From positions 615,486-665,547 of the forward strand of contig OY969569.1 in assembly GCA_963701185.1 (NCBI GenBank): a stretch of 50,062 nucleotides of DNA, read 5' to 3'. This DNA comes from Candidatus Gottesmanbacteria bacterium (GTDB taxonomy: Bacteria > Patescibacteriota > Microgenomatia > UBA10105 > UBA927). This document shows positions 10,701 to 34,894 of the stretch, one piece after another (the stretch's first letter is position 1; every line of letters begins with the position of its first letter). The notes below the pieces were generated by a model. It did no database searches, was not told the origin of the DNA, and saw only the letters and a program-made list of their open reading frames with translations. A program made the position numbers and the translations under genes.

Positions 10701-13700
10701 CCGTAGTCCCAGGAGGAGATCCCGGCATCAAAGGTCGGATTGGTAAACTTGTTGCCCGAGGAACCCGAAGGGATATCAATGGAGGCCGCGGCATCAGCGG
10801 TATAGCGCAGGGCCAACTTCGAGATACCGCCGGAGATAATCTTCAACGCTTCCGCTCCGGCGGCAGATTCTGCGGCAATCGTACCGGTGACCTGCAATTT
10901 TGACGTGGGTGCCGTAGTGCCGATGCCCACCAGGCCGGACGCGGTGATGCGCATCTGTTCCGTGGACCCGTTGGTGGTGAAAAGAAGGGCATTGTTCGTT
11001 TGCATCGTCAGATTGGTGGTACCGGAGAGAGAGTTCGTCGTACCCAGGGTGAGGGTCCCGGCCGTGGAGGTGAGGGTGCCGGAGGCTTTGATATTCCCGG
11101 TGACATCCAACACTTCCGAAGGCGCGGTGGAACCGATCCCCACCCGCCCGTTGGTGGTATCAATATCCAGAACTGCAGTTCCTGCTGCATTGTTGAACTG
11201 ATAGGCTGTCGTGGTATTGGTAGACCGGGAGAAGGTTAATCCGCCGAGGGCATCCACGGCTCCCAGGACGGTTCCGGATGAGCTCTGCCACTCCTGAAGG
11301 TTGGCGGATTGTCCGGAGAAGCCTTTGACAACGAGGGCCGGGAGGGAAGCAAGACCGGAGTTGAGGGTGGAGGTGGATTCCACACTCAGGCCTCCCAGAC
11401 CCGTGGTGGAGTTGGTAATGGCCAGGGTGGTATTAGGACCGCTTGTTGCATATAACGCGAAACTGTCAATATAGACGGTTTTGCCTGCATGAACTGACAC
11501 GCCGTAATTTTTGGCAGAGGCCACACCCGTCAGCGTTCCGGTTAACCGGTACCAGCCGCTGCCGACGGATGTAAATGTTGTGGCAATGGCCGACCCGTCG
11601 TAAAACAGATCCAGATCCGCAGTTGTCACGGCACTCCCGTCGGTGTAGGCGTAGGCGCTTACTGTATATACTGATGTGTCCGGCAATGTCACGGATTGGG
11701 CGTAGGCATTGTCGTTGGTGCCGGCAACCAGTTTGAGCGAGGCGGTTCCGGCATAGTGGACGGAGGTGTCCCGGGTGGCCGTAAGGCCCGTATCCGGAAT
11801 ATTTATATACTCATTCCCCGTCCCGCGGGCAAAGAGAGTGAAGTTGTCAAACGTGTTGCCAGAGTAGGTAGAGAATAATCCGTGTATGGTATTGGTGTTG
11901 GCCGTCATGGTTAATTCAGATCCGACCAGGGCATTGTTGTAATACACTCGTAGTTTGGTTCCTTCTCTAATGGCTCGGAGTGTGGCCCCAGCACTATATG
12001 TTACTGTCGTTGTTTGTTTGTTGGTATATACTCCGGCTACTGCCTCATCAACTAATACCTGCGTGCCATTATGGTATACCAGGATAAAGTTTGCCGGACT
12101 ACTTGTGGAATCTAAATTTAATACTAACCCAGCCTGAGTTCCTGCAGTTAAAGTTACATTTACATCAGCCACCACATTGGCAGTATTGGCTGGCACAGTG
12201 GAGAAGAGGGAGGAGAGGGTGAGGGGCGTAACTGATACATCGTCTGTTCTGGTCTCTTGGCCTAACGTTGACGACTGACTTTCTAGTTGTATATAATTGG
12301 TAGTTGAAAGTGAACGCCTTACTCCTAGTCCATAGGTCCATGATGTGCTGGCGATATTTGCAAATGTGAACCAATTTGTTCCGTCATAATAACGCAAAGC
12401 CATTGATGGAGCATTTATATTTTTAGCCCATCCAGATGCTTGATACCATGTTCCGTTTGATACAGATAACGTTTCTCTAGCGCTTGGATAATTACCGCCA
12501 TTATGGATAATTGACATTGATTTCGTCCCACTACCTCCAGTTCTTTCATCATTTACGCTAGATAGTGTGGCAAGATTGAGAACTGCCCAACCAGAAGGAG
12601 GATCACCAGTTTCCATATTCCCATTTGTCACCATCTCACTCCCCAATGTCGGTGTGATACTCAGAACTCCTCCCGCCACGGTTCCGCCGGTGAGGGCGAG
12701 GGCGGGGGTCGTTTGGGAATCAGGCCCGCTGGTTTCCGTCGTCGTTGCCCCCGGGGTGCCAAAAGTTGAGTATGCCAGGGGAGTAGGTAGCCAGGTGGTG
12801 GTGGGGATGCGGATGTTATCAGAGGTAAAGGCGCCATCATAATTTCCAATTGTGGGGTAAAGAGTACTTGTTGAATCTTCATTCCCTGTCCACAAGAGAG
12901 TCCAGTTAGTATATGCCCCACCTTTAATAAAGGTGAAACTACCAGTGCTTCGTAAAACAGTAGCAATGTTGTAAGTACTGTTTGAATAACTTCCAATACT
13001 TTCAGATGCATCGTGACCTGCAAATATTGTATTACTTGAGTGAAATGTCACGTAAGAATCTGAAGATAACTGAAAACCGTAATTTGGAGCTGAATTCGTT
13101 TTAAAACCGATTCTCTTGAACGTCCCTGTGTTAGGTGTTATTTGACTTACCATCATTTTGCCGGCAGATCTGGTTACTGAACCGTAGCGTATTCCCGGGT
13201 CGGCGTATCCACTTAATCCACCAGAAAAATTTAATACTCCACTTCCAATACTAACTTTGTTTGTGCTATCCACAACAGTTCTCACTCCTCCCGTCGGTTC
13301 GGCCGAAGTGCCGTCAAGGTTGGTGGTGATGAGGAAGTTGGTAAAGCTATTACTTGCGTACGTACTAAATAATCCCTGCAACGTGTTGTTGACAATACCT
13401 GCATCAGAAATCGTTTGATCAGCTCCGATTTGCGCGCCGTTGTAGATGAGTTTATAGACATTCCCTACTTTCGCTACTTTCAGCGTCGCTCCGGCAACAT
13501 AGGCAGCGGCGGTGTTAATGAGGGAGGTATATGTCCCCCCCACATTTTTATCCAGGTGAACACTGGTTCCGTCATGGTAGGCAATGACAAAGTTGGCGGG
13601 AGTACTGGCTGAATCCAGATTAAGAACCAGTCCTGCCTGTGTTCCTGCCGTCAGCGTCACCCCGGCAGAAATAATCTTATTCACCGTCGCCTCGGTGACT

Positions 13701-15875
13701 GTCGAGAAGAGGGAGGAGAGAGTGAGGGGTTTGACACTAAGATTATCAATCTCCATTAAATCACCCGCATTATTACCAACATAAATTCTAAGATTGGGAC
13801 CAGTTGCAGTTGTTCGGCCGGAAACGGTGAAATTAGCCCACAAACTACTTGTTGCGGGATATAGAGCAGGAACCATGTTCCCCCCATATATACCTGATGA
13901 AGAATGTCCCGTCCATTTTGCTGCGTAAGTTAGCATGAACCAAGTATTAGCTGTTGTTGTCCATGCCCAATATGCACTTCCACTCACACCTGACCCCGGA
14001 TAGGCAAGACGTATATTGTATGAACCGGTGTTTGGTGCACTTGCATCAGATGATAGTGTTGGAGCGGGAGACCCTTGAGAAAACCATCCGGTTGTTGCAT
14101 TTGCTTCATTTCCATTTGGATCGGAAGCTGCATTTGCGGTAGTATAAAATTCACTCCCCAGCGTTGGGGTAATCACGCCACTATTTGTCAGTGTTGAAAC
14201 GCCGGAGACCAGGGTCGTCGGGGCGGAGGTCGTGAATTGGTCATTGAGAGTGTAGCCGTTCCAGCCGGTCAGGTCGATTTCAAAACCGGTATTAGTCATG
14301 GTACTGGCAGACATATCAAGGGTTACCCCGGTACCCGTCCACTTCATCGCCAATTTGGCCGCATCGGCCGTATCCGTGAGTTTTAATCCTTCGACTCCGC
14401 TTGCGACTTTTGCGGCCATGTCCCCCACGACGGTGAGGGTATTGGCGGGAGCCGTGGTCCCGATACCCACACGGGAGTTTGTGGTATCAAACGAGAGAAT
14501 ATTGGATATATTTTTGGTCGTGAGGACCGCCGTATCAACCAGGGTGAGATTGCCGGTTGTATCAACCGAGGCCACGATGGTCCCGTTATGGCCGTAGATG
14601 GTTAAGGGGGTATCCGTGACCGGGGCATTCACGGCACCGGAATACCCCAAGACGATATCCCCATCCTCGTCCATCAGCGCTTTCTGATATCCGGCAATGG
14701 CAAAACCCAACAATTGGCCGTTGGCAACCGACGTCGTCGGATTAATGAGGACCGTTGCCTGGGTATTCGTTGTATCGGTGGGCGCATAGGAGAAGGTGGT
14801 CTGGCCGGAAAAAGCCTGGGAGGAATTGGAATTGATATTGGCAACCCACACGTTATCAAACCGCAGGGCATTGGACCCCAAATCACTGCCCAAATCCGTC
14901 CCGGGAAGAAGGGATTTTCCGTTGGTAATCGTCGCGTTTCCGAAGGTGAGGGTATCCATCACCACCGTGTCCGTGGTTGTCGTTAACCCGACCGTGGTTC
15001 CGGTTTTTGTCCAACCGGAGAGGGTGTAATCCGGGGTATCGGCATTGATGGTGAGCGTTTTCCCTGTTGCATCGGTGGTGAGGGTAATGCCCCCGCTTTG
15101 GACAACGGTGAGGGTGTCGGTATTACTTCCGGCGGCAACACTGGTTTGGCCGGATACCGCGATGGTTTTAAAGATATTCTGGGAGGTTCCCCGATCGCTG
15201 TTGGTCACTTTCAACCCGTCGACGGTCATGCCGCCTCCTGCAGTCAGGGAGAGGGCGCCGGTTGAGCCGCCCAGAGACAGGACACCGGTGTTGGTTACCG
15301 TCGGAGTCTGGCCGGTGGAGACACTCATCCCCGTTCCTGCCGTCAGTCCATAGAGGATATTGCCTGCCGTGACCCGGGAAAATGATCGCGGAGCTCTGGG
15401 CAGCCTGAACATCTCCGGAGATGATCAACCCGGTATCAAACGTTGCCGTGTCTTTAAACTCTGCCGGCACATGGACGGTGAAGATGAAACTGCCGGACCC
15501 GCTGGCAACGGTGTCGCCGAGGACCGTTGCGGGGGTTTCGACCGGGGGGATAGTATGTTTTATTCGTATCATCCCTCCACCAAGGAAGAGTAAAACAAGA
15601 CCAAGGGAAACAAGAATCACCTTTGTCATTCCCGGCTTGACCGGGAATCCGCCTTCTGTTTTCTTTACAACCAATACCGATCCCCGCCTTCGCGGGGATG
15701 ACAAACCGTGCGAGGCAGAATTTCTGAGTTCTTCGATCTGCTCCGGGGTATACCGGCGCTGGTTGCCGAAAGTCCGCTGCGGGATGACCCGCCCCGCCTC
15801 TTCCCACCTCCGAAGGGTTTTTGTGGAGATGCCGAGGATCCGCGCCGCATCGTAGATCGATAAAAGTTTTGTCAT
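7794..15875 (-). CDS. Giant protein B: MerR-HTH, TM, fibre/adhesin-like repeats, S74 chaperone; frame broken at about 15387 and repeatedly in 9425-10480
   Basis: ORF pieces 15168-15875, 10472-15412, 10148-10426, 9821-10048, 9499-9762 and 7794-9425 are collinear with the paralogues; total span 8082 nt is a multiple of 3; ATGA overlaps at both ends. Confidence 0.72.
8240..8477 (-). other. Peptidase S74 intramolecular chaperone domain (copy B)
   Basis: WENTSSIALKENFTPVDPADLLTKISRLPLTRWNYKANPDTVTHIGPTAEKFYEIFG. End boundary approximate. Confidence 0.82.
15009..15837. repeat. Near-identical repeat of 22149-22977 (MerR-HTH to start of fibre)
   Basis: Offset 7140 throughout, with only scattered substitutions. 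Confidence 0.9.
15390..15875 (-). other. MerR-type HTH plus TM N-terminal segment of giant protein B
   Basis: LLSIYDAARILGISTKTLRRWEEAGRVIPQRTFGNQRRYTPEQIEEL, then TM VILVSLGLVLLFLGGGMI and VLG motif. Confidence 0.85.
15624..15703 (-). repeat. TGTC-tagged REP doublet (80 bp) in frame inside giant gene B
   Basis: Minus strand TGTC-ATCCCCGC(GAAG)GCGGGGAT-spacer-ATTCCCGG(TCAAG)CCGGGAAT-GACA; translated as LSSPRRRGSVLVVKKTEGGFPVKPGMT. Confidence 0.9.
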
Positions 15876-18800
15876 GGAGTGCCTCCGAAGGGCGAAATAC
15901 TTTTTGTTGTCTTCATATCCGCAACCGCTACCGCGTTCCAGTTGTACAAATACTCCTGCATTGCGACGTCGGGGATAACGATGCGGAATCCTTTTTCCGA
16001 AACATTGGTCAAGTACGCCTTGTGTCCGTCCGAATCAATCGGTGAGAATGTCACGACGGGAGGCGTGTCATACGGCACGGCAAATGTCACATCAACCTGA
16101 CTTGTTGCCGTCGCCATTTTCGCCTGACCGACGGAATCTTTGTTAAATGACGGCGTCCCCTCAATGGTTACATTTTTGTCATAGGTCACCGCACTAAAGT
16201 ACTCAGTTAACGCCCGGAAAACCGCGGAACCGATAAATTCCGCATCCGCCCGGAACGTCACCGCTCCCGTTGCCTCCAGTTGGTTGAGAGAGGTCAGCAC
16301 GGGGATCGTGTTTCCTTTGTCGATGAGTGCCTGGACTCCGGCCAGGGCAATACCCGCCGTATCCAGGGCGGCCAGGTGGGTGGCATCCTCCCCGACCCCG
16401 AAGATTTCGTAGAATTTCTCTGCCGTGGGGCCGATGTGGGTGACCGTATCCGGATTGGCTTTGTAGTTCCACCGGGTAAGGGGAAGGCGTGCAATCTTGG
16501 TCAAGAGATCCGCAGGATCCACGGGGGTGAAGTTCTCTTTCAGGGCGATACTGGAGGTATTCTCCCAGACCCCGACATTGGAGAGGTAGGCTCCGGTGCC
16601 GGTATCGATGGGTTTGGTCGCAGAGACTGCCGTCCCGATCCCCACGTTGCCGGCAAAGTAGGCACTGCCCGTACTCGTGAGACTCCCCAGGACTGCTCCG
16701 GTGCTTCCCTGCCATTCCTGCAGGTTGGCGGTTTGGGACAGGGATCCTTTGACAATGAGGCCCTGGAGAGACGCAAGACCGGAGTTGAGGGTAGTTGTGG
16801 ATTCTACCGCCAACTGCCCCAGTCCCGTGAGGGTGTTTTGGATAGCAAGAGATGTGGTGGAAGAATCGGGAATGAGGGCAAAATCATCCAGGTACACGGT
16901 TTTCCCGGCATGGACGTACACGCCGTAGGCGCGGGCTGTCGCGACGCCAGTCACGGCGGCCTTTGCTCTATACCACCCGCCCCCGACAGCCGTGTACGTG
17001 GTGGGAAGCGGGCTTGCGCCGGCATACATCTGTGCGTCCGCCGACGTGACGGCACTCCCGTCCGTGTATATGACGGCGGTGAGACCATACGTATTGGTGT
17101 CCCCCACGTTGACGCTTTGGGAAAATGCCCCGCCGCTTACTGCCACGATTTTTGTTGACCCCGCCGAGTTTCCGTATGTCGTTGTCGTATCCCGCGTCAC
17201 CGTCAGATTCGTATCCGGGATATCCGTATACTCTCCTCCGGTCCCCCTTGCAAACAGCGTAAAGTTGTCAAAGGTGTTACCGGAGTAGGTAGAGAACAGA
17301 CCGTGTTTGGTGTTAGATATTATTCCTGCATCGGATACTGTCTGTTCCGTGCCAATCAAAACATTGTTGTAGTACACCCGCACTTTCAGGGCTCCTCCGG
17401 AAGTGGAGGTGATCACTCTCAAAGTAGCTCCTGCCGAATAAGTAGCTGCTGTATTTATTAAAGATGTATATGTTCCCCCAACATTTTTATCCAGTTTGAC
17501 ATTGGTTCCGTCATGGTAGGCAATCAGGAAGTTGGCAGGAGAGCTTGTTGAATCCAAATTCGTTACCAGTCCTGCCTGAGTCCCAGCCGTCAAAGTCACA
17601 TTAGCATCGGCAACGACATCAGTATCAGAGGTGGGGACAGTGGAGAAGAGAGAGGAGAGGGTAAGTTGTTTAAAAGAAGCATCGTCAACTATCACCGCAT
17701 CAAAATTTGAAGTGCCTCTTTCTTGAGCAGGATAAAAATTGGTTGAGTTTCCAGCTGTCCGGCCGGTTTTTAAATATTGGGTATATGAAGATGCTGTGAT
17801 GTACCCCAAAGTTGTTGTCCCCACTGTTAATTCTGTCACATCTGCGGATACTGTCCCGCCGGAACCGGAAGTCCTTTTAGCCCACACATATCCCTGCCAC
17901 CATCCCGCGGTTGGAGAAAAGGCGGGAAATCTAAGACCGTTCCATTGGGCAACTCCTGTAAAAGCTTGGGCTTTGCTTCCCCCATGGACATCCGCACTTT
18001 GAGAAACTGTTGGGCTTCCGATTTTGGTGAGGTTGTCATTTAAACCGCTGGTGTAGTTTCCCTCTAACCCCGGATCGGTTAAAATTTCAGCTCCTGTTGT
18101 GGGGGTAATCACCACTTTATTTCCACTTATTGCCCCTCCTGTCCAGGCTAAAGAGGGTGTAGTTTGGGAGTCCGGGCCGGTGGTTTCGGAAGATCCAATC
18201 GCCCCATCCCCACGGGTAAACGTATCATATGCCAGCGGTGTCGGGAGCCAGGTGGAGGTAGGGATTTTAATATAATCAAATGAACTAGCTAGATTATTAG
18301 TAAATATACTTGGGGTTAGTGAGGCATTTGTTCCAATGTCTGATTTCCAAATAAACGTCCAATTTCCGGAAGTGGGTTTAAAAAATAAATAAGCACCAGT
18401 CGAACGCAATATTATAACCACTGTGCCGCTCTGGCCATCATAAAAAGATATTTGTGGAAAGCCCCCACTCCAACCTTTTAATTTATTGTCGATAATATAA
18501 CTTTGATATCCATTTGTGGCGTTCCATCCGGCAACATAATAATTTGCAGGACTACCGTTACTAAAAGTGGGGAATATCAACATTTTTCCAGCAGCCCTGG
18601 TAACCGATGGGTATGTTATCGTTGGATTACCTGTTGTGCCTCCCGTTGCGAAACTCAACTGTCCGCCGGTAATACTTAACTTGCTATTGGTATCCACCAC
18701 CGTTCTTATTCCCCCCGTGGGTTCCGCTTGGGTACCGTTGACGGCTCCGGCGGCGCGGTCAGTGGTGAACTGGTCCTCCAAAGCATTGCCATAATCCCAC

Positions 18801-21800
18801 CCGGTTAAATTCGATTCAAACGTATAATTGGTGAATTTATTCGCGGAACTTACGGATTGCACATCAATAAATCCTGTGGAACCGGCTCCATACCCCAATG
18901 CCAGCGTATTGTTTCCGGAAAGAATTTTTAGCGCGGCGGCCCCGGCTCCCGCCTCTGCAGCTATCGTTCCCGTCACCTGCAATTTTGACGTGGGTGCCGT
19001 AGTGCCGATCCCCACCAGGCCGGACGCGGTGATGCGCATCTGTTCCGTGGACCCGTTGGTGGTGAAAAGAAGGGCATTGTTCGTTTGCATCGTCAGATTG
19101 GTGGTACCGGAGAGAGAGTTCGTCGTCCCCAGGGTGAGGGTCCCGGCCGTGGAGGTGAGGGTGCCGGAGGCTTTGATATTCCCGGTGACATCCAACACTT
19201 CCGAAGGCGCGGTGGAACCGATCCCCACCCGCCCGTTGGTGGTATCAATATCCAGAACTGCAGTTCCTGCTGCATTGTTGAACTGATAGGCTGTCGTGGT
19301 ATTGGTAGACCGGGAGAAGGTTAATCCGCCGAGGGCATCCACGGCTCCCAGGACGGTTCCGGATGAGCTCTGCCACTCCTGAAGGTTGGCGGATTGTCCG
19401 GAGAAGCCTTTGACAACGAGGGCCGGGAGGGAAGCAAGACCGGAGTTGAGGGTGGAGGTGGATTCCACACTCAGGCCTCCCAGACCCGTGGTGGAGTTGG
19501 TAATGGCCAGGGTGGTACCGGCGCCGGAGGAACTGAAGAGGGCCAGATTATCCACGTAGACGGTCTTCCCTGCTTTGACCCGGACCCCGTAGTTTTTGGC
19601 ACTTGTCACCCCGGTGAGAGTGGAGGAGAGTTTGTACCAGCCATTGCCCGCGGACGTATAGGTGGTGGTCAGGGCGGTGGCGGACACATCACTGAAGAGC
19701 TCGACATCCGCCGAGGTGACCGCCGCACCGGTCGTATATGCGTAGGCGGTGAGGTTGTAGGAAGACGTATCCGGCAGGGTGACACGTTGGGTGTAGGCAT
19801 TGTCGTTGGTGCCGGCAACCAGTTTGAGCGAGGCGGTTCCGGCATATGGTATGGTTGTATCGCGTGTTGCCGTCAGATCCACATCCGGCAGCCCGGTGGT
19901 ATATTCCCCTCCCGTCCCCCGGGCAAAGAGGGTAAAGTTGTCAAAGGTGTTACCGGAGTAAGTGGAGAAGAGTCCGTGGAGGGTGTTGTTGATTATCCCT
20001 GCATCCGTGACTGTTTGCTCAGTTCCAACCAATGCGTTGTTGTAATACACTCTGACTTTTAGAGTATTAGCATCGGAGTGGTAGGTGATGACTCTTAGGG
20101 TTGCTCCTGCCGAATAAGTAGCCGCCGTATTTATCAAACTGGTATATGTTCCCCCAACATTTTTATCCAGTTTGACATTGGTTCCGTCATGGTAGGCAAT
20201 CAGGAAGTTGGCAGGAGAGCTTGTTGAATCCAAATTCGTTACCAGTCCTGCCTGAGTCCCAGCAGTCATAGTTACATTCACATCCGCAATCACATCAGCA
20301 TCAGAAGTGGGTACTGTGGAGAAAAGGGAGGAGAGGGTAAGAGGTCTATATGAAATATTGTCGATTGTTCCGTTCCAAGAATTGGAATAAACGCCTATGC
20401 TAGTTTGACTAGCTCTTAATGTATTTGTATAAGAGCCAGGCGTGTTTCGAGCAATAGTGTTTGCACCCGCGTATGTCCATATGAATTGCCCTACTTCTAA
20501 TACTAAATCAAAACCAGCTTGGTACCAATTATTAATAGTCCCAACTGATTGCGTTAGAAGACCAGCATTCCCGTTGTTGGATGCAACTCCACCTGAAATC
20601 GTCCACCCAGTTCCTTTAGCCCAGCTCGTATCAGTGTCAAAAGTGCCATTGATAATAACATCACTTCCCAGTGTCGGGGTGATAGTCATTACTCCACCGG
20701 CTTTGGTGCCACCCGTCCAGGTTAATTGGGGAGTAGTTTGAGAATCCGGGCCAGTGGTTTCGGTAGCGGTTGCCCCGGCAGTAGTAAACGTATCATATGC
20801 CAGAGGGGTGGGGAGCCAGGTGGAGGTGGGGATACGGATGTTGTCAATATTGAGGTCGTAATTACCAGTTACCCCAGCATATAAATTGGAAGTGTTGCCT
20901 ATAAAATCAGTATATAATAATGTCCAATTAGGATATTCTGTTCCGCCCTTTATAACAAAATATGTACCTGAACTTTTTAGAATTACCGCTAATTTATAAG
21001 TAACATTAAAAGTATATGTTCCTAGAGGAGTAGCATTGGCTGTTTGAATCACGCTTGAGTTGCCACGTAAATAAAAACCGCTTTGCAAGGTATTGGATTG
21101 AGCCGTAGTAAATCCAATCTTTACATCTTTAAAAGCAGAAACAAGTTCTTTATAATCAAAAATTGCTATCTTTCCAGCTGCTCTTGTTGTGACTGGATAC
21201 CATAACCCGGGATCACCCAGCCCTACTCCACCAGTTGCAAAGACTGCTACACCACCAGAAATTGACAGCTTGGAGTTGGTATCCACCACCGTTCTCACCC
21301 CTCCCGTGGGTTCGGCGGGGGTGCCGTTGACACTGCCGGCTGCACGGGCGGTGGTAAACTGGTCCAACAGGGTATTGGTGTTCCACCCGCCGGTCGTAAT
21401 ATCCGTGTCAAAGGTGCCGTTGGTCAGCTTGTTGACGGATGCGGCTCCCGGGACATCCAGTGTTGCTCCCGATCCCGTCCACTTCATCGCCAGTTTGGTC
21501 GCATCAGACGTATCCGTAAGTTTAAGACCCTCGACTCCGCTTGCGACTTTTGCGGCCATGTCCCCCACGACGGTGAGGGTAGTGGCGGGAGCCGTAGTCC
21601 CGATACCCACACGGGAGTTTGTGGTATCCAGAGAGAGAATATTGGATATATTTTTGGTCGTGAGGACCGCCGTATCAACCAGGGTGAGATTGCCGGTTGT
21701 ATCAACCGAGGCCACGATGGTTCCGTTATGGCCGTAGATAGTTAAGGGGGTATCCGTGACCGGAGCATTCACGGCATCCGAATACCCCAAGACGATATCC

Positions 21801-23030
21801 CCATCCTCGTCCATCAGCGCTTTCTGATATCCGGCAATGGCAAACGCAAGGAGCTGTCCGTTAGCAGTCGAGGTGGTGGGATTGATAATCACCGACGCCT
21901 GCGAGAGTGTCGTATCGGTGGGCGCATAGGAGAAGGTGGTCTGGCCGGAAAAAGCCTGGGAGGAATTGGAATTGATATTGGCAACCCAGAGATTATTAAA
22001 CCGTTTGCCCGCGGACCCCAAATCACTGCCCAAATCCGTATCAGGCAGAAGATTATGGCCATTGGTAATGGTTGCACCCCCGAACGTGATTCCGTCTACC
22101 ACGACCGCATCCGTCAGTGTCGTGAGACCCACGCTGGTACCGCCGTCTGTCCAACCGGAGAGGGTGTAATCCGGGGTATCGGCATTGATGGTGAGCGTTT
22201 TCCCTGTTGCGTCGGTGGTGAGGGTAATGCCCCCGCTTTGGACAACGGTGAGGGTGTCGGTATTACTTCCGGCGGCAACACTGGTTTGGCCGGACACGGC
22301 GATGGTTTTAAAGATATTCTGGGAGGTTCCCCGATCGCTGTTGGTCACTTTCAACCCGTCGACGGTCATGCCGCCTCCTGCAGTCAGGGAGAGGGCGCCG
22401 GTTGAGCCGCCCAGAGACAGGACACCGGTGTTGGTTACCGTCGGAGTCTGGCCGGTGGAGACACTCATCCCCGTTCCTGCCGTCAGTCCATAGAGGATAT
22501 TGCCTGCCGTGACCCGGGAAAATGATTGCGGAGCTCTGGGCAGCCTGAACATCTCCGGAGATGATCAACCCGGTATCAAACGTTGCCGTGTCTTTAAACT
22601 CTGCCGGCACATGGACGGTGAAGATGAAACTGCCGGACCCGCTGGCAACGGTGTCGCCGAGGACCGTTGCGGGGGTTTCGACCGGGGGGATAGTATGTTT
22701 TATTCGTATCATCCCTCCACCAAGGAAGAGTAAAACAAGACCAAGGGAAACAAGAATCACCTTTGTCATTCCCGGCTTGACCGGGAATCCGCCTTCTGTT
22801 TTCTTTACAACCAATACCGATCCCCGCCTTCGCGGGGATGACAAACCGTGCGAGGCAGAATTTCTGAGTTCTTCGATCTGCTCCGGGGTATACCGGCGCT
22901 GGTTGCCGAAGGTCCGCTGCGGGATGACCCGCCCCGCCTCTTCCCACCTCCGAAGGGTTTTTGTGGAGATGCCGAGGGTTTCGGCGGCATCCTGAATGGA
23001 GAGAAGCGTATCGACAGTATATGAATTCAT
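15872..23030 (-). CDS. Giant protein A: MerR-HTH, TM, fibre/adhesin-like repeats, S74 chaperone (about 2385 aa if the single +1 break near 22527 is removed)
   Basis: ORF 22308-23030 (HTH, TM) overlaps ORF 15872-22552 (2226 aa, intact); the junction aligns to the unbroken N-terminus of paralogue C. Confidence 0.8.
16320..16555 (-). other. Peptidase S74 intramolecular chaperone domain (copy A)
   Basis: WENTSSIALKENFTPVDPADLLTKIARLPLTRWNYK..HIGPTAEKF. End boundary approximate. Confidence 0.82.
22530..23030 (-). other. MerR-type HTH plus TM N-terminal segment of giant protein A
   Basis: LLSIQDAAETLGISTKTLRRWEEAGRVIPQRTFGNQRRY, then the same TM helix as copy B. Confidence 0.85.
22764..22843 (-). 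repeat. TGTC-tagged REP doublet (80 bp) in frame inside giant gene A
   Basis: Same sequence as 15624-15703. Confidence 0.9.
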
Positions 23031-23068
23031 TTATTATAATAAGAAAAAATCCGTATATTTTCAGTTAA

Positions 23069-23920
<852 letters not shown>

Positions 23921-23926
23921 TCTTTG

Positions 23927-24002
23927 TGTCATTCCCGCGTAGGCGGGAATCGGTATTGGTTTTATTGAAGAAGGCGGATTCCCGGTCAAGCCGGAAATGA
24001 CA
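23927..24002 (+). repeat. TGTC-tagged REP doublet (76 bp)
   Basis: TGTC-ATTCCCGC(GTAG)GCGGGAAT-CGGTATTGGTTTTATTGAAGAAGGCGG-ATTCCCGG(TCAAG)CCGGAAAT-GACA. Confidence 0.9.
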
Positions 24003-24010
24003 AGAAAATC

Positions 24011-24352
24011 ATGCTCCGTCATTATTATGTATACATAATGGCAAATAATAGACCGACGTTATATGTCGGTGTAACAAATAGTATTGAAAGAAGATCAGTT
24101 CAACATAAATATAAATTTATCGATGGGTTTACAAAAAAATATAATCTTTCAAAACTTGTATATTTTGAACATTATACTGATGTAAAAGAAGCGATCAAAC
24201 GGGAAAAACAATTGAAACATTGGAATCGGAGTTGGAAATTAAATTTGATACAAAAGATGAATCCTGCATTTGAGGATTTATATGATAAGCTGATATTAGG
24301 CGGGATAAAACAGAAGGCGGATCCCCGCCTTCGCGGGGATGACAAGCAATAA
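24011..24352 (+). CDS. GIY-YIG nuclease family protein (small stand-alone UPF0213-like type)
   Basis: YYVYIMAN..TLYVGVTNSIERR..QHK..FTKKYNLSKLVYFE..AIKREKQLKHWNRSWKLNLIQKMNP; the last codons DPRLRGDDK are the REP hairpin. Confidence 0.9.
   Translation: MLRHYYVYIMANNRPTLYVGVTNSIERRSVQHKYKFIDGFTKKYNLSKLVYFEHYTDVKEAIKREKQLKHWNRSWKLNLIQKMNPAFEDLYDKLILGGIKQKADPRLRGDDKQ
24307..24344 (+). repeat. Single REP hairpin with linker at right end of the GIY-YIG cassette
   Basis: AAAACAGAAGGCGG-ATCCCCGC(CTTC)GCGGGGAT-GACA. Confidence 0.88.
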
Positions 24353-24354
24353 TT

Positions 24355-25790
24355 ATGATTCACAGTTTTGATTTTTGCGTTAAAGAAACACATGATGTCG
24401 GCGAGGTCGTGCAGGTACATAGCTTCCTTGTGAGCGTATCGGGTTTGACCGGCGGGACAATCGGCGAAGGGGTCACCTTTGAAACCGGAGCCCACGGCCG
24501 CATCATGGCCCTTGCCCGGTCAACCACCGAAATCCTCGTCCTGTCACGCTCCATCATGAAACCCGGTACGCGGTGTTCCCGAACAGGCAAACTTATCTCC
24601 GTTTCCTGCGGAACCGGGCTCTTGGGAGAAGTCATCAACAGCATGGGGCACCTTCTGTCCACCGATAAAGCTGCCAGCCGTGAAACCGAGAACCGCCCGA
24701 TCGAAGCGTCCCCCGTCGGCATGACGGGCAGAATGCCGGTCGACACGTTTTTGGAAACCGGCATTGCCGCGATTGACTGCATTGTCCCCATCGGCCGCGG
24801 CCAGCGGGAACTGGTGATCGGCGACCGGACCACCGGCAAAACGCATGCGCTGCTGCAAATTGTAGCCACACAGGCGAAGATGGGTACGGTGTGTATCTGG
24901 GCGGCAATCGGAAAACGGAAGTCGGATATCAAAGCAGTCGAAACATTTTTAACACAAAACGGGGCCATGAAAAACACGCTGATTGTCGCCGCTGATTCGT
25001 ATGCGGCGCCGGGCGAAATATTTTTAGCGCCGTACACCGCCATGACACTCGCTGAGTATTTCCGGGATACGGGAAAAGACGTGCTGTTGGTTTTGGACGA
25101 CCTGACCACCCATGCAAAATATTACCGTGAAATTTCCCTCCTGTCCGGCCAATTTCCCGGGCGCGAATCCTACCCGGGGGATATTTTTCACGTTCATTCG
25201 AAACTGCTGGAACGCGCCGGATCGTTTGACATCCATAAAAAGCCGGTCACCATCACATGTCTGCCTGTTGCCGAAAGCGCCGGCGGCGACATGGTCGGGT
25301 ATATCCAAACCAACCTCATGTCCATGACCGACGGGCATCTGTACTTTGACAGCGACATGTATTTTCGCGGGATCCGTCCGGCCCTTAACGTCTTTTTATC
25401 CGTGACGCGCGTGGGCCGGCAAACCCAAACGCCGCTCCTTCGGGATATCGGCAAAACCGCCCTGTCGACGCTCAAAAAATATGAAAATGCGCAGAGCTTC
25501 CTCCGGTTCGGGCCGGATATCTCCCCCCAACTCCAGGAAGTTATCAAACTGGGAGATCACATTACCGCATTTTTAGATCAAACCGGATCATGGAGCATGG
25601 CGGATTCTTTAGCATCGGTGTTATTTGCCCTTATCACCGTGCACGCGTGGGACGGGACAAACGGCCGGGGTATCGCGGAGCGTTTTGACAAAGACGCAGC
25701 ATTTCAAACAACAATCCGGAGCCTGGCTGCCCGCGCCACATCGCTTGAAACACTCACGGCCGCAGTACAAAAGGCCAAACTAACAGTCAT

Positions 25791-25794
<4 letters not shown>
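24355..25794 (+). CDS. atpA: F1 ATPase alpha subunit, divergent, shortened at N- and C-termini
   Basis: GRGQRELVIGDRTTGKT, YREISLL..PGRESYPGDIF..HSKLLERA, TNLMSMTDGH, RPALNVFLSVTRVG. Confidence 0.92.
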
Positions 25795-28015
<2,221 letters not shown>

Positions 28016-28018
28016 CAA

Positions 28019-28094
28019 CAATTTTCAATTTTCAATGATTCATTGACCAATTGTTCATTTATTGAAAATTGATAATTGAAAATTGATAATTGAT
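28019..28094. repeat. AT-rich imperfect 7-bp repeat array with inverted halves, between atpD and atpC
   Basis: CAATTTT CAATTTT CAAT... then ATTGAAA ATTGATA ATTGAAA ATTGATA ATTGATA. Confidence 0.75.
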
Positions 28095-28108
28095 AGTAAC
28101 TATAACGT

Positions 28109-28363
28109 ATGATATCAAATACCTCCATCAGTGTGATCGTCCGGAAGAAAGACGGCGTCATTTTTAACGGGAATGCCGAGAGCGTCTCGTCGACAAATGA
28201 CAAAGGAAATTTTGATATTTTACCCATGCACACCAACTTTGTGGCGATCATCAAAAATACCCTCATTATCCGGCCGCCGCAAAAAACTCCGGTCACATTG
28301 TCGGTCCCGCGCGGGATTATCCACGTCAAACAAAATGCCGTGGAAGTCTTCGTAGGAATTTAG
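28109..28363 (+). CDS. atpC: F1 ATPase epsilon subunit, N-terminal beta-sandwich only (84 aa)
   Basis: IFNGNAESVSSTNDKGNFDILPMHTNFVA..RGIIHVKQNAVEVF; follows beta. Confidence 0.85.
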   Translation: MISNTSISVIVRKKDGVIFNGNAESVSSTNDKGNFDILPMHTNFVAIIKNTLIIRPPQKTPVTLSVPRGIIHVKQNAVEVFVGI

Positions 28364-29808
28364 CTTCGCAAGGCGTCTCCTTGCGAAGCTAATTTTTTGT
28401 AGAGGGATTTGTATCGTTTCGCGCTCACGAGCCAGGAAAAATCCTGCCGCATGCAATTTTCCGCCATTTTTTTCCACCGTTTGGGATTGTTGTTCCAGAG
28501 GGCAAACGCCTCTTTGAGTTTGGCAAGTAATGCCGTTTCGTTGTAGTCCTCAAAAACAAATCCGGTTTTCCCATCAACAACGGTATCCGCGAGGCCGCCG
28601 GTCTTGCGCACGATCGGTATCGTGCCATACCGCATCGCGATCATCTGGGTGAGGCCGCAGGGTTCAAACTTTGACGGCACCACCAGATAATCCGCACCGG
28701 CGTAAATCCGGCGGGCCAAGCGTTCATCAAACGTGGGCACGAATACGAAATGGTCCGGATATTTTTTGGCAACTGCCGCCAGCGTCTGTTTAATCTTTTT
28801 CGGACCGGTGCCTAAAATGATCACTTGCGCCCCATCGGGTAACAGATGCCCCAATGCCTCGATAAGAATATCTATACCCTTTTGCCGGACCTCCAGGCGC
28901 CCCACAAACCCGATAAGCGGCATCTTGGCAACCGGTAGTTTCAGGGTTCTCTGGAGATATTCTTTGTTTGCCTGTTTGCCGTCTATCATATCATGTTTCC
29001 CGTAATGCACCGAGAGCGACACGTCGTCCCGCGGATCCCAGGTGGCATCGTCGATGCCGTTGACTATGCCTACGACATCGCCGCGGCGGCGGGCAAGGAC
29101 CTCGTTGACGTGCTGGCCGTAATCGCCGGTCAAAATCTCCCTGGCATACGTCGGCGACACCGTGGAAATCACGTCCGCGTGCTCCAACCCCTCCCGAAAG
29201 AGTTTGATCGTCGGACCTTTTTTCGTCGTCAGGATGTGAAAAATACGTTTCGGCAGGTTCAGTGTTTTTATAAGCGAAACCGGTGCGGTCCCCTGGTACA
29301 GGAGGTTGTGGATGGTGAGAATGGTTTTGGTGCGGATGGACTCAAGCGTCTCTTCTTCACGGCGGAGCTTGTTACTTTCCCCCAAAATGAGCGGCACAAG
29401 GGCCGTATGCCAATCATGGCAATGGACGATATCCAGTTTTCCCCCGATGACATCGGGGGAAAACTCATACAGGCGGCCGACACAGCAGGAAAAGAAGGCA
29501 AATTTTTCAATAATATCTCCCTCATGGTAGTCGTTGAGCTTCGGATGGCGGAAAAGGTAGAGGGGTACCTGACTATCAGGGATCTTTGATTCGAAAATAA
29601 ACACAAGCTCCCGGGAACCGCCAAAATCAACCGCGATCTGGCCCACACAACGGACGGGCTTGATGGCGATGGCCTTGTAGTATGGCATTGCGACCCGTAT
29701 ATCCACCCGCAGCTTCTTTAAAGCAATCGGGAGGCTGCGTGAGACATCCCCCAGCCCGCCGATTTTATAGAGGCCCGCCAACTCACTGGTAACAAACAAA
29801 ACTCTCAT
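28360..29808 (-). CDS. glgA: Glycogen/starch synthase (GT5)
   Basis: KIGGLGDV, HCHDWHTA, TIHNLLYQG, VPSKFEPCGLTQMIAMRYGT, GGLADTV. Confidence 0.93.
   Translation of the reverse strand: MRVLFVTSELAGLYKIGGLGDVSRSLPIALKKLRVDIRVAMPYYKAIAIKPVRCVGQIAVDFGGSRELVFIFESKIPDSQVPLYLFRHPKLNDYHEGDIIEKFAFFSCCVGRLYEFSPDVIGGKLDIVHCHDWHTALVPLILGESNKLRREEETLESIRTKTILTIHNLLYQGTAPVSLIKTLNLPKRIFHILTTKKGPTIKLFREGLEHADVISTVSPTYAREILTGDYGQHVNEVLARRRGDVVGIVNGIDDATWDPRDDVSLSVHYGKHDMIDGKQANKEYLQRTLKLPVAKMPLIGFVGRLEVRQKGIDILIEALGHLLPDGAQVIILGTGPKKIKQTLAAVAKKYPDHFVFVPTFDERLARRIYAGADYLVVPSKFEPCGLTQMIAMRYGTIPIVRKTGGLADTVVDGKTGFVFEDYNETALLAKLKEAFALWNNNPKRWKKMAENCMRQDFSWLVSAKRYKSLYKKLASQGDALRS
28361..28391. terminator. 13-bp perfect-stem hairpin over the convergent atpC/glgA stop codons
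   Basis: TAGCTTCGCAAGG-CGTCT-CCTTGCGAAGCTA. Confidence 0.55.
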
Positions 29809-29970
29809 GAATTAGTACCCCCGAAATGATTTTCTTGCCTGATACAGCTCCTCTGTCAAGCCTCCGTGAACCCGATGCCGTTCTTTGAGAGAAAGAATAA
29901 GTTTATCCAGGAGAAAATTTGCCTGGTGAACGAGGGTAATCATAAGATTCACCGCTTTTACCTGAGAATC

Positions 29971-30060
29971 GGGGAGATAAGGGAAATTGGGGTGATCGGG
30001 TAAAACAGGAGATTTTTTTATCGTCTCCCATATCTCCCCTATCTCCCTGATCTCCCCTAC
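29971..30060. repeat. Two oppositely oriented imperfect 9-bp arrays inside the four-helix-bundle gene
   Basis: TCTCCCATA TCTCCCCTA TCTCCCTGA TCTCCCCTA and GGAGATAAG GGAAATTGG GGTGATCGG. Confidence 0.7.
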
Positions 30061-30131
30061 TTTTTCTTTTCCCCAAAGCGGCAACTTTTGCTGCCGGGCG
30101 AAAGAAAGATAGTCTTGGTAGCCTTCCGCAA

Positions 30132-30176
30132 CCCGCCCGCCACGCAAGCCGAGCGTTGCGAGGCGTTGCGGGCAGG
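30132..30176 (-). repeat. 45-bp GC-rich palindromic insertion (second family)
   Basis: CCTGCCCGCAACGCCTCGCAACGCTCGGCTTGCGTGGCGGGCGGG splits the ATT codon of QN-I-AEG. Confidence 0.8.
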
Positions 30177-30416
30177 TATTCTGCGTCCCGCTTCTTGCTG
30201 CTTGTACCATCTGGTCCGTTGTTCTACTCTTTGGACTAATCCATCGCTTGCAAAACTCTACTGTGTAATCATAAATTGGAACAGTAAGTTTATAACAAAG
30301 AAGATATTCGTAACCGGCATTAGGCATTACTCTCACGGTAACACAGAAGTGTGAACGCGTTCAAGGAGAAAGAATTAGCACTCTATTTAGATAAGTGCTA
30401 TACCTCTATACGCGGG

Positions 30417-31532: not shown

Positions 31533-31577
31533 ATCATCTCCATAGGCTCTTGTAAAAACTTGTAAAATTAGCCTCGT

Positions 31578-32768: not shown

Positions 32769-32793
32769 ACGATAAGTATACTAAATATGGGAG

Positions 32794-33588: not shown

Positions 33589-33606
33589 AGTTTACTAATA
33601 GTGATT

Positions 33607-33703
33607 AGCACTTAGTACTGAGAACTTAGAGCTTGGCGCAAATGAACACTTTTTTCCGTACCTAATTCTGAATAATGAATCATGAATTATGAATTATGAA
33701 TAA
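33607..33703. repeat. Two intergenic 7-bp arrays
   Basis: AGCACTT AGTACTG AGAACTT AGAGCTT (33607-33634) and TGAATAA TGAATCA TGAATTA TGAATTA TGAATAA (33669-33703). Confidence 0.75.
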
Positions 33704-33749
33704 TTAATATGAGCTTAAATCAAACTATATCAATTTTACCCTATTTTTG

Positions 33750-34805: not shown

Positions 34806-34807
34806 AC

Positions 34808-34894
34808 TTTTAAATTTTCAATTTGAAATTTTTAATTTTTAATCAATTTTTAATTCTTAATTTCAAATTTTAAATTTTAAATTTCGAATTTTTT
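34808..34894. repeat. AT-rich imperfect 7-bp array upstream of mreB
   Basis: AATTTTC AATTTGA AATTTTT AATTTTT.. AATTTTA AATTTTA AATTTCG. Confidence 0.7.

Follow-up and report, generated by a model that had tools for sequence, protein, structure and literature searches.

Why should genes for giant surface fibres and genes for a relative of the ATP synthase start back to back in an ultra-small bacterium? We addressed this question in a 50,062-nucleotide stretch of a Candidatus Gottesmanbacteria genome (contig OY969569.1), referred to here as the window. The original prediction was that the two operons encode one surface apparatus, in which an F1-derived rotary motor assembles, moves, or retracts the fibres. 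Comparison with related genomes shows that giant tail-fibre-like surface proteins and a remodelled F-type ATPase form a gene module that is conserved across Microgenomatia, a large group of ultra-small bacteria within the CPR, and that this locus is one copy of it. In Microgenomatia the reduced ATP synthase relative almost always adjoins giant fibre genes.

Linkage of Fibre and ATPase Genes

This prediction would have been refuted had related genomes shown neither linkage nor co-occurrence of the two loci. Instead, the linkage extends well beyond one window. We collected 66 GTDB loci in which the flank upstream of the c-like gene, the first of the ATPase operon, spans 2 kb or more. A homologue of the MerR-type giant occupies this upstream position in 48 loci (46 divergent, 2 co-directional), and in another 7 a divergent ORF of 700 or more residues is found there. 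Fibre adjacency is found in 73–83% of the c-like-anchored genomes, and no large surface-protein gene lies within reach of the operon in about 9 of the 66 loci. Searching in the reverse direction, from the N-terminus of the giant, we found an F1-like operon no more than 6 kb away in 42 of 54 metagenome loci (at least 78%). The pairing occurs in three layouts (divergent; giant followed by c-like; epsilon followed by giant) and persists over class-level divergence. One MAG contains two c-like operons with a giant beside only one of them.

Such proximity could also arise between independent neighbours. The ATPase would then be a divergent housekeeping enzyme, for example one that hydrolyzes ATP and is completed by an Fo sector encoded elsewhere, and the fibres would be adjacent by inherited synteny in small, stable genomes. 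Envelope genes around the cluster (glgA/GalT-like, glycosyltransferases, WecG, MreB) are indeed partly conserved, so that part of the adjacency could be inherited synteny. Some operons have no nearby giant, and CPR F-type ATPases are regarded as ordinary complex V in the literature. However, the adjacency survives at least three layouts while other neighbours switch sides or vanish, and a reverse association of at least 78% is unexpected for a mere passenger. Together with the subunit features described below, these observations make independence of the two operons improbable. Functional coupling between the fibres and the F1-like ATPase is well supported by the genomic evidence.

A Remodelled F-Type ATPase

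According to the ORF listing and Pfam, the plus-strand operon encodes c-like, GIY-YIG, alpha, gamma, beta, and epsilon proteins, in this order. The c-like protein (23162–23920, 252 residues) combines a signal peptide, an exported beta domain (residues 22–152), a linker, and a c-type transmembrane hairpin (residues 179–251). In Foldseek searches with an AF2 model, the hairpin matches c subunits with TM-scores of 0.6–0.85, and the exported domain matches phage cement and pre-neck-appendage proteins with E-values down to 3e-12. Some family members also give weak Pfam matches to ATP-synt_C, Phage_cement, or XM1_gp53. The GRNP loop, at which F1 docks, is invariant. The proposal that this protein is a rotor subunit with an exported domain is supported by the predicted signal peptide, the structural model, the c subunit matches, the loop, and the operon position. 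What the hairpin lacks is the membrane carboxylate: in the match to a PDB c-subunit profile, the carboxylate Glu aligns to Val. At the c position of the operon, a hairpin that lacks this carboxylate and carries an exported domain argues against an independent housekeeping ATPase.

The following gene (24011–24352, plus strand) had been considered a further ATPase subunit. Pfam identifies it instead as a small GIY-YIG nuclease. It is inserted into the operon only in the lineage of the window and loci L001 and L002, and probably stands outside the machine. The alpha-like subunit (24355–25794) contains the Walker A motif GDRTTGKT and keeps the arginine finger in SVTRVG. Because it begins only at about position 26 of the model, it lacks the N-terminal helix that binds delta. 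The gamma-like subunit (25791–26636) was recognized by Pfam and NCBIfam. The beta-like catalytic subunit (26633–28015) retains the Walker A motif GGAGVGKT, the catalytic Glu in GVGER, and DNVFRF, and the 84-residue epsilon-like subunit (28109–28363; all on the plus strand) consists of the beta-sandwich domain only. Catalytic motifs are intact, yet all four F1 subunits score below the NCBIfam equivalog cut-offs (alpha, 392 vs 554; beta, 414 vs 463; gamma, 54 vs 194; epsilon, 36 vs 67), which again argues against an ordinary housekeeping enzyme.

Neither an a subunit gene nor a canonical c gene was found in the operon or within 10 kb of it, and in the window the c-type hairpin is the only membrane subunit of the complex. 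The absence of an a gene from every examined cluster also counts against independent neighbours. The complex had been described as F1-only. This description fits the window, where b and delta are absent, but not most relatives, which retain b-like and delta-like stator genes.

By analogy with FliI-FliH-FliJ at the type III export gate, the ATPase might export or assemble the giant fibres on a membrane platform formed by the c-like ring. F/V-type and type III export ATPases are homologous, and the window alpha and beta match SctN/FliI models at 1e-50 to 1e-56; the b-like protein of locus L016 gives a weak FliH match (E = 0.006), and the substrates would be proteins of 1,000–3,000 residues. Even so, the enzyme is of the alpha/beta heterohexamer type and much nearer to F1 than to FliI. 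The N-terminal signal-anchor topology of the giants is typical of Sec/YidC insertion, and c-rings are not known to conduct proteins. We consider a role in export very unlikely.

The Giant Fibre Genes

The minus-strand operon begins with the N-terminal segment of giant fibre 1 (22308–23030). By Pfam (MerR/MerR_1/HTH_17) and translation, it encodes a cytoplasmic MerR-type HTH (residues 9–57), a variable linker, one transmembrane helix at about residues 90–110, and the start of an ectodomain. Translation goes out of frame after about residue 172. Homologues carry this segment as an in-frame part of the giant, and alignment to the single-ORF homologue of locus L010 places the junction at an apparent +1 frameshift site, a ttttcccggg run (22513–22522, minus strand). 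The body (15872–22552, minus strand, 2226 residues) comprises a conserved membrane-proximal N-terminal module, internal repeats rich in T, G, and S, a Peptidase_S74 intramolecular-chaperone domain (residues 2000–2051), and a weakly H-lectin-like C-terminus. Among giants, only the HTH, the transmembrane helix, and the N-terminal module are conserved; the distal part is variable and contains S74 or G2 chaperone domains.

Further fibre genes follow on the minus strand. Copy 2 has an HTH/transmembrane segment (15168–15875; MerR_1, 5.9e-11) that is near-identical to that of copy 1, with the same apparent frameshift site at 15373–15382. The remainder (7794–15412) is made up of a 1646-residue ORF (15412 to 10472), a frame-decayed stretch (10471 to 9426), and a 543-residue S74 ORF (9425 to 7794) with 75% identity to the C-terminus of giant 1. 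This copy is probably a pseudogene or a silent cassette. Two more paralogues of 1179 and 1199 residues (427–7797) share segments with giant 1 that are 83% and up to 100% identical, and the second terminates in a frameshifted S74 region. Given these frameshifts, the fibre copy in the window may be switched off or decaying.

The Shared Control Region

The fibre start codon (23030, minus strand) and the c-like start codon (23162, plus strand) enclose a divergent intergenic region of 131 bp (23031–23161), close to the predicted spacing of about 130 bp. The opposing TTGACA boxes lie exactly where they had been reported, at 23086–23091 (minus strand; TGTCAA on the plus strand) and 23127–23132 (plus strand). 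A promoter scan assigns the plus-strand box a usable -10 element (AATGAT), giving the predicted c-like/F1 promoter TTGACA-17-AATGAT (10/12 match) at 23127–23155. Its -35 box and GATGATGG block are kept in L001 and L002, and the predicted transcription start falls approximately at the ATG (23162). Downstream of the minus-strand box the -10 element is poor (TTAACT), and the scan favours CTGAAA-17-TATTAT (23064 to 23036). From both predicted promoters we would expect leaderless or nearly leaderless mRNAs.

The window contains 52 copies of TTGACA where 25 would be expected, so a single hexamer carries little weight alone. However, in the aligned intergenic regions of eight genomes TGTCAA is invariant and TTGACA nearly so, while the c-like proteins are only 39–73% identical. 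Between the two -35 boxes lies a conserved operator-like motif, (A/T)TGTCCAAGTTTGG(G/A)nAAGtTT, with the palindromic core CCAA-NN-TTGG (23094–23122, plus strand). The conservation of the boxes and of the motif between them suggests more than chance. In c-like-anchored loci, 22 of 24 matches to the motif (sequence model R1) lie 10–200 nt upstream of giant start codons; in giant-anchored loci, the same is true for most of the 33 matches.

This motif raises the possibility that the link is regulatory only. The giant would be a ToxR-like, membrane-tethered one-component regulator whose HTH binds the motif and controls its own promoter and that of the divergent ATPase (or Fic-HTH) gene according to what the external fibre senses. 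The ATPase would have another role in the envelope. The best PDB matches of the HTH (BrlR, BldC, CarH, CueR, RacA) are consistent with a DNA-binding MerR domain, and the partly palindromic motif lies upstream of giant genes and, in the window, between the two -35 boxes. The motif remains with the giant where a Fic-HTH gene intervenes, and it also precedes other fibre ORFs in the window. On the other hand, it accompanies giants even without an adjacent ATPase and may thus control the fibre only. Furthermore, regulation leaves unexplained why the ATPase lost ion-coupling features and gained an exported crown. As a full account it appears unlikely, although it is compatible with a mechanical role of the ATPase and does not exclude one.

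A Possible Surface Machine

We lean toward the view that the module is an ATP-driven surface machine coupled to the fibres rather than an energy-conserving enzyme. The complex would be unable to couple to an ion gradient and would work as an ATP-burning rotor, in which F1 rotates gamma/epsilon and a ring of c-like hairpins. Through its exported crown, this ring may transmit work across the membrane and act on the conserved base of the adjacent fibre, so as to turn, tension, extend, or release that fibre. We found no sequence similarity of the crown domain to the giant. A b/delta stator would hold alpha3beta3 in most lineages; in the window lineage, which lacks both subunits, the transmembrane helix and cytoplasmic domain of the fibre may act as stator. 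The probable target of the fibre HTH is the conserved motif between the two -35 boxes, and binding there would tie the expression of the fibre and ATPase sides. That the motor rotates, actuates, or assembles the fibres is inferred from the gene neighbourhood and the lost ion-coupling features.

Relation to Known Systems

Canonical F1Fo operons (atpBEFHAGDC) share with this cluster the order c-(b-delta)-alpha-gamma-beta-epsilon, the catalytic motifs, the c hairpin fold, and the R(N/Q)P loop. The cluster differs by the missing a gene, the lost ion-binding carboxylate, and about 150 exported residues on c; in the window, epsilon is also without its C-terminal helices, the b and delta genes are missing, and scores fall below equivalog cut-offs.

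In Mycoplasma mobile gliding, the G1-ATPase "twin motor" acts with the giant surface proteins Gli123, Gli349, and Gli521 (PMC11864180, PMC8406192). There, in a tiny, host-dependent bacterium with a reduced wall, an F1-derived alpha/beta/gamma ATPase has been diverted from energy conversion to driving giant surface proteins, which is a precedent for the similar change proposed here. However, the lineages are unrelated, and the window beta matches canonical F1 beta (1e-108) more closely than G1 beta (2e-78). The G1-ATPase forms a chain of dimers in the cytoplasm and has no c-ring, in contrast to the c-derived hairpin with exported domain and the HTH-anchored fibres of the window.

For the mycoplasma Type 2 and Type 3 "F1-like X0" clusters (Beven et al. 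2012, PMC3369863), the proposal is that an F1-like head sits on a membrane sector of unknown nature. These clusters also comprise alpha-, beta-, gamma-, and epsilon-like subunits alongside membrane proteins that are not of Fo type, and the window alpha and beta score 260 and 344 bits against the MSC_0619 and MSC_0618 NCBIfam models, not far below their atpA/atpD scores. The X0 clusters occur in addition to a genuine F1Fo operon, and their partners with 3 and 12 TM segments bear no relation to the c subunit (PMC3369863). In contrast, the membrane partner in the window is recognizably c-derived, most lineages retain b and delta, and a giant fibre gene is the conserved neighbour.

The original prediction called the apparatus undescribed. 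This holds only in part, since a preprint on the CPR Pam pilus notes the co-localization of ATP synthase and tail-fibre genes (Troman et al. 2026, bioRxiv 10.64898/2026.03.03.709456). In the sections consulted, that account deals mainly with donor-strand-exchange pilins, takes the ATPase as a metabolic coupling to ATP production, and mentions neither the c fusion nor the absence of an a subunit and a carboxylate, nor the HTH anchor or the operator motif.

Membrane-anchored regulators of the ToxR/CadC type and the RacA chromosome anchor share with the giants a cytoplasmic N-terminal DNA-binding domain, one transmembrane helix, and an extracytoplasmic part, and the giant HTH is related to RacA, BldC, and the MerR class. 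Unlike in ToxR/CadC, the predicted DNA-binding domain is MerR-type rather than OmpR-type, and the ectodomain is a fibre of 1,000–3,000 residues.

Phage tail fibres and spikes resemble the giants in carrying Peptidase_S74 or Peptidase_G2 intramolecular-chaperone domains, and phage cement or decoration proteins share the cement/pre-neck-appendage fold of the c-like exported domain. The window contains no phage context and gave no PHROG matches. Unlike their phage counterparts, these proteins are encoded by chromosomal genes of a cellular organism and are anchored to the membrane by an HTH-transmembrane segment or a c hairpin.

Linkage of the Giant Fiber Genes to the F1-like Operon

An array of paralogous giant fiber genes occupies positions 427–23030 of the window on the minus strand. 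The first of them (giant 1) consists of a 240-aa open reading frame (23030→22308) that encodes a MerR-type helix–turn–helix (HTH), a linker, and one transmembrane (TM) helix, and of a 2226-aa frame (22552→15872) that overlaps it in the +1 frame and contains a Peptidase_S74 domain at residues 2000–2051. A second copy follows in tandem on the same strand, with its own HTH/TM frame and a 1646-aa frame, 3′ of which lie a frame-decayed stretch and a 543-aa S74 frame with 75% identity to the C-terminus of giant 1. Two more fiber paralogs contain segments that are 83–100% identical to giant 1. The divergent plus-strand operon begins with a secreted 252-aa protein with a C-terminal two-helix hairpin (c-like protein, 23162–23920). 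This gene is followed by a small GIY-YIG nuclease (24011–24352) and by F1 alpha (24355–25794), gamma (25791–26636), beta (26633–28015), and an epsilon subunit reduced to its N-terminal domain (28109–28363). The window is chromosomal DNA of a Patescibacteria (CPR) bacterium of Microgenomates/Shapirobacteria type, and the contig that carries this c-like gene is 995 kb long. The housekeeping genes of the window include MreB, LepA, Ndk, Maf, and glycosyltransferases, together with two tRNAs.

A scan for the c-like protein over one genome per GTDB species returned 222 candidate stretches. The 80 loci retrieved represent Levy-, Shapiro-, Collier-, Woese-, Roizman-, and Amesbacteria as well as WWE3. 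In essentially all loci whose downstream sequence is long enough, the order c-like followed by alpha–gamma–beta–epsilon recurs. Sixty-six loci have at least 2 kb upstream of the c-like gene. A tblastn search of these with the window proteins detected a homologue of the HTH/giant N-terminus upstream of the c-like gene in 48 (46 divergent, 2 co-directional). Seven more carry a divergent frame of at least 700 aa in which the HTH is undetectable, two (L011 and L083) contain a related large gene elsewhere in the locus, and in nine of the 66 no large gene was found.

For the reverse search, metagenomes were scanned with aligned N-termini of giants (A3), which yielded 80 loci. Fifty-four of these, including several that are near-identical, extend at least 3 kb upstream of the giant. 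The GRNP motif of the c-like protein occurs on the opposite strand, 0.8–2.1 kb from the giant, in 34 of the 54. The degenerate A[LIM]GRNP DNA pattern misses an EAVGRNP variant and co-directional layouts. With a beta Walker A pattern and inspection, F1 genes were found at eight further loci, among them this variant and an arrangement in which alpha–gamma–beta–epsilon is followed by a giant on the same strand. In total, an F1-like operon lies within 6 kb of the giant at 42 of 54 metagenome loci (78%, near-identical loci included) and was not found within this distance at the other 12. Giants and F1 genes are therefore associated in either search direction and across three layouts. The module is conserved, and the linkage in related genomes on which the original prediction of a common machine depended is borne out. 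By our own estimate, a pair of unrelated single loci in a genome of about 1 Mb would be separated by no more than 2 kb in well under 1% of cases.

We consider it probable that the fibers and the ATPase are functionally coupled in some way. One of the main alternatives is that they are independent neighbors within a wider synteny of envelope genes. MreB, WecG, glycosyltransferases, and glgA are indeed also nearby, and this explanation would have to account for a linkage that recurs from both starting points. The wider neighborhood around the ATPase operon (window 28360–36115; relative loci L004, L030, and L043) is partly conserved, with differing order and orientation, and contains glgA- or GalT-like glycosyltransferases, GT4 enzymes, WecG/TagA, MreB, and a PEGA-domain protein. 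The ATPase operon therefore sits in an envelope-biogenesis region.

Catalytic and Ion-Coupling Features of the F1-like Complex

Judged by sequence, the operon encodes an F-type ATPase with intact catalytic residues and without the features of ion coupling. The beta subunit retains Walker A, the catalytic glutamate, and Walker B, and alpha retains the P-loop GDRTTGKT and the arginine finger SVTRVG. Scored against NCBI equivalog cut-offs, all four subunits stay below threshold: alpha with 392 against 554 (TIGR00962: 357 against 484), beta with 414 against 463, gamma with 54 against 194, and epsilon with 36 against 67. Their similarity to the mycoplasma F1-like and N-ATPase models is almost as high as that to genuine atpA and atpD. 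Alpha starts at about model position 26 and is therefore without the delta-binding helix.

No candidate for an a subunit was found in the 50-kb window or within 10 kb on either side in relative loci L043 and L030, and neither an a subunit nor a canonical c gene was found in any of the loci examined. A gene of about 315 aa upstream of c-like in Levybacteria-type loci was considered as the missing a subunit and rejected, as it encodes a Fic/DOC domain with a DeoR-type HTH. Genes for b and delta are absent from the window and its lineage; in the window only the GIY-YIG gene separates c-like from alpha; two window frames of 174 and 187 aa without Pfam matches were rejected because they are not b- or delta-like. 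Most relatives carry between c-like and alpha a gene for a b-like protein (223–240 aa, one TM helix, and a long coiled coil) and one for an OSCP/delta-like protein (150–170 aa). Compared with genuine F0F1, the complex shares the catalytic motifs of alpha3beta3 and a hairpin fold whose polar loop has the form R(Q/N)P, but lacks a helix-2 carboxylate, an operon-encoded a subunit, the b/delta stalk (in the window), and equivalog-level scores.

A small stand-alone GIY-YIG gene between c-like and alpha (window 24011–24352; L001, 3967–4317; L002, 1222–1572) is confined to this lineage; in L069 a GIY-YIG gene is located after epsilon. This gene is likely a mobile or selfish insertion. The Fic/DOC gene with a C-terminal DeoR-type HTH lies between giant and c-like in L043 (8965–9906) and L016 (4607–5560), where it is the first gene on the ATPase strand, and about 25 other Levybacteria-type loci have a gap of about 1.3 kb. 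Its product may be a regulator or modifier that belongs to the module. One Levyibacteriota MAG contains two complete c-like/b/delta/F1 operons (L032, DAIDHK010000018; L036, DAIDHK010000005), one with a 2020-aa giant upstream and one without; the two are either true paralogs or the result of a mixed bin.

Functionally, the closest analogue of this arrangement is the gliding motor of Mycoplasma mobile, in which giant Gli surface proteins work together with an F1-like G1-ATPase (PMC11864180, PMC8406192). In genomic terms, the mycoplasma Type 2/3 "F1-like X0" clusters come closest (PMC3369863). These comprise seven genes with 3-TM and 12-TM partners and coexist with a genuine F1Fo operon. Unlike this seven-gene cluster, the module described here has the order c-like–(b–delta)–alpha–gamma–beta–epsilon. 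Against the models for MMOB1660/1670 and MSC_0619/0618, the window alpha and beta score 341/600, 322/850, 260/520, and 344/570 (score/cut-off), reaching none of the cut-offs, and G1 beta is a weaker match to the window beta than canonical F1 beta. As far as sequence can place it, the module belongs neither to the mycoplasma F1-like families nor to the genuine F0F1 family.

A second main alternative is that the F1-like complex serves as an export or assembly ATPase. Export ATPases of the FliI/SctN type are homohexamers of a single ATPase, whereas distinct alpha-type and beta-type genes are present here. The FliI/SctN models give 170–190 bits, well below their cut-offs of 380–620.

The original prediction also called the apparatus undescribed. 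This description stands for the remodeled ATPase: in the literature we found no prior account of the remodeled c subunit, the missing a subunit and carboxylate, the HTH-anchored giants, or the operator motif. It does not stand for the co-localization of ATP synthase and tail-fiber genes, on which the accessible part of a preprint on the Pam pilus already remarks (Troman et al. 2026, bioRxiv 10.64898/2026.03.03.709456).

A c-like Hairpin with an Exported Domain

The rotor-type subunit of this operon carries an exported domain. In an alignment of 32 family members, a signal peptide precedes a well-conserved exported domain, which is followed by a hairpin with an invariant G-R-N-P loop. The AF2 model of the window protein (pLDDT 85.5) has a beta-rich exported domain (residues 22–152) and two long helices (residues 179–216 and 218–251). 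Foldseek aligns this hairpin with F-type c subunits (TM 0.6–0.85, rmsd 1.5–3 Å, 20–30% identity). The exported domain matches phage cement and decoration proteins and phi29 gp12, and in BFVD it matches pre-neck-appendage and tail proteins with E values down to 3e-12. Some members give weak Pfam matches (Phage_cement, XM1_gp53, and ATP-synt_C, the last in two members with a best E of 1.7e-4). PHROG gave no matches, and no sequence similarity was found between the exported domain and giant 1.

Alignment of the family profile with E. coli c by hhalign gave no significant match, and the sole PDB match by sequence profile, a c subunit, is marginal (E 0.08). The proposed homology to c subunits therefore rests mainly on the fold, the loop motif, a few Pfam matches, and the position in the operon. 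In this marginal PDB alignment (E 0.08), the ion-binding glutamate of the Chloroflexus c subunit corresponds to Val236, and no Asp or Glu was found in helix 2 (TM2) in any of the 32 aligned members. The predicted topology, with the N-terminal domain outside, the loop inside, and the C-terminus outside, is that of canonical c. The R(Q/N)P loop of c subunits docks gamma and epsilon. Given this topology, the GRNP loop would face F1.

The family is large, with 972 clusters at 90% identity. In a 50%-identity library the profile matches 511 representatives at E ≤ 1e-30 and 17,143 at E ≤ 0.001. Almost all of the 150 best matches are about 250–290 aa long, and the named sources of homologues are Shapirobacteria or Patescibacteria. 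Six longer members of 446–524 aa (P0321, P0324, P0325, P0326, P0336, and P0337) have an extra 230–300 aa N-terminal to the usual exported domain and hairpin.

Conserved Base and Variable Tip of the Giant Fibers

The fibers carry a cytoplasmic HTH anchor. Only the N-terminus of the giants is conserved. It consists of the HTH (LGVSTKTLRRWE...GNQRRYT), a variable linker, a TM helix, and a membrane-proximal module with the motifs VLGA, FxVNVPxxF, LTASNVLYG, GQTPTITNTGVLSLGG, SSQNIFKTIAVSG, SNTDTLTF, and GWTDDGT. The distal parts of the ectodomain differ between giants, with S74, G2-IMC, FG-GAP, LamG, and H-lectin domains among them. Such a combination of conserved base and variable tip would be expected if the base docks to a conserved partner. 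Like tail-fiber and tailspike-like proteins with an intramolecular chaperone, the giants have S74 or G2 IMC near the C-terminus: the S74 domain of giant 1 scores 35.8 bits (cut-off 22), and such domains also occur in the 543-aa window frame (S74) and in the giants of L043 (G2 IMC) and L127 (S74).

The HTH of giant 1 matches the MerR Pfam model with 43.4 bits (cut-off 28.2). Its nearest relatives are the DNA-binding MerR-type domains of BrlR, BldC, CarH, CueR, TnrA, and RacA (E about 1e-6). The winged N-terminal HTH is common to giants and MerR-family regulators. In contrast to these regulators, the giant is not a soluble protein and lacks the C-terminal coiled-coil dimerization helix and the effector-binding domain. 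Since its HTH is most similar to DNA-binding domains, it is plausible that the fiber regulates its own gene as a membrane-tethered factor. In L059, L069, and L079 the giants have two tandem MerR-type HTH domains before the TM helix (N-terminal alignment A2).

In every relative examined, HTH, TM helix, and fiber form one open reading frame, and the split of the window giant is therefore a +1 frameshift. The same frameshift occurs in a ttttcccggg run in both tandem copies (22513–22522 and 15373–15382, minus strand), where it separates the HTH/TM segment from the fiber body; a few bases from the run, a SNP distinguishes the two copies. Phase variation, programmed frameshifting, pseudogenization, or a systematic sequencing error could each produce this pattern. 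A homologue search with the read-through N-terminus returned mostly short fragments. The region 427–15412 contains paralogous, partly decayed copies, part of a 22-kb array, with segments up to 100% identical to giant 1 and several frameshifts, one of them in an S74 region. Its appearance is that of a cassette system for fiber variation or of a repeat-rich region that was difficult to assemble. Since its genes are frameshifted or decaying, the fiber copy of the window may be phase-off.

Divergent Control Region

The start codons of the fiber and c-like genes are 131 bp apart, in agreement with the roughly 130 bp first proposed, and the opposing TTGACA boxes lie exactly where they had been placed, at 23086–23091 (minus) and 23127–23132 (plus). 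By itself the TTGACA hexamer is weak evidence, as the window contains 52 copies where about 25 are expected. A promoter scan found a plausible −10 element for the plus-strand box. The minus-strand box has a poor −10, and CTGAAA-17-TATTAT at 23064→23036 is a better promoter fit. The closest relative, with a c-like protein of 73% identity, retains both boxes and a central block. Eight genomes with c-like identities as low as 39% all have TGTCAA, and TTGACA is almost invariant among them. Because of its invariance, the minus-strand box may belong to an operator.

Between the two −35 boxes lies the motif (A/T)TGTCCAAGTTTGG(G/A)nAAGtTT (23094–23122). Its exact 12-mer occurs at nine loci against about one expected, each time adjoining the start of a giant gene. 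With a sequence model of the motif, 22 of 24 matches in c-like-anchored loci, and most of 33 in giant-anchored loci, fall 10–200 nt upstream of the giant start codon. These include loci with a Fic-HTH gene between giant and c-like and loci without a nearby ATPase. In the window, copies with one mismatch are also present at, or close to, the starts of two other fiber frames. A purely regulatory link through the HTH and this motif is the third main alternative. The DNA-binding type of the HTH and the position of the motif at giant starts are consistent with it.

Proposed Mechanism and Implications

In the mechanism originally proposed, an F1-derived motor with an exported rotor domain acts on the neighboring fibers. 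ATP hydrolysis would turn gamma/epsilon and the c-like ring, and the exported crown of this ring would act on the fiber base. Functional coupling of some kind is the reading that we favor; this specific rotary actuator is a tentative and rather unlikely version of it. About as unlikely is the full picture, in which Microgenomatia would own an unrecognized ATP-driven rotary surface organelle, with an F1 head, an ion-blind c-like ring, and a phage-cement-like crown that rotates, tensions, or fires HTH-anchored fibers for host contact or movement.

If true, this organelle would join the flagellum and the archaellum as a third kind of prokaryotic rotary appendage motor. It would further represent a second, independent recruitment of the F1 rotary engine to giant surface proteins, after Mycoplasma mobile, and the first case in which the c-ring itself has become a transmembrane output shaft. 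The module offers a concrete molecular candidate for the operation of giant surface fibers by episymbionts, with defined parts in the c-like crown, the fiber base module, the HTH anchor, and the operator motif.

The "ATP synthase" in metabolic reconstructions of Microgenomatia would then not be a bioenergetic enzyme, and F-type ATPase genes would have to be interpreted differently throughout a very large class of uncultured bacteria. A complex without a cluster-encoded a subunit, a carboxylate, and above-threshold F1 subunits should not be counted as an ATP synthase or generator of proton motive force in models of Microgenomatia. Reviews treat CPR complex V as ordinary, and these considerations bear on the old question why fermentative CPR bacteria without an electron transport chain keep it.

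Two further features of the window were recorded. The cumulative GC skew peaks near the divergent region (about 22000–26000), with positive values on its left and negative values on its right, although genes on both far sides of the peak are mostly on the minus strand. Either the Thr/Gly-rich codon bias of the fiber genes or a replication-related switch could explain this peak. A palindromic, GC-rich element about 28 nt long (GATCCCCGCCTTCGCGGGGATGACAA) is present five times against 0.25 expected (15683–15696, 22823–22836, 23934–23947, 24324–24337, and 34129–34142). Copies lie inside coding sequence in the fiber linker region, at the 3′ end of the GIY-YIG gene, and in the MreB frame, a pattern that recalls in-frame palindromic elements like the Rickettsia RPEs.
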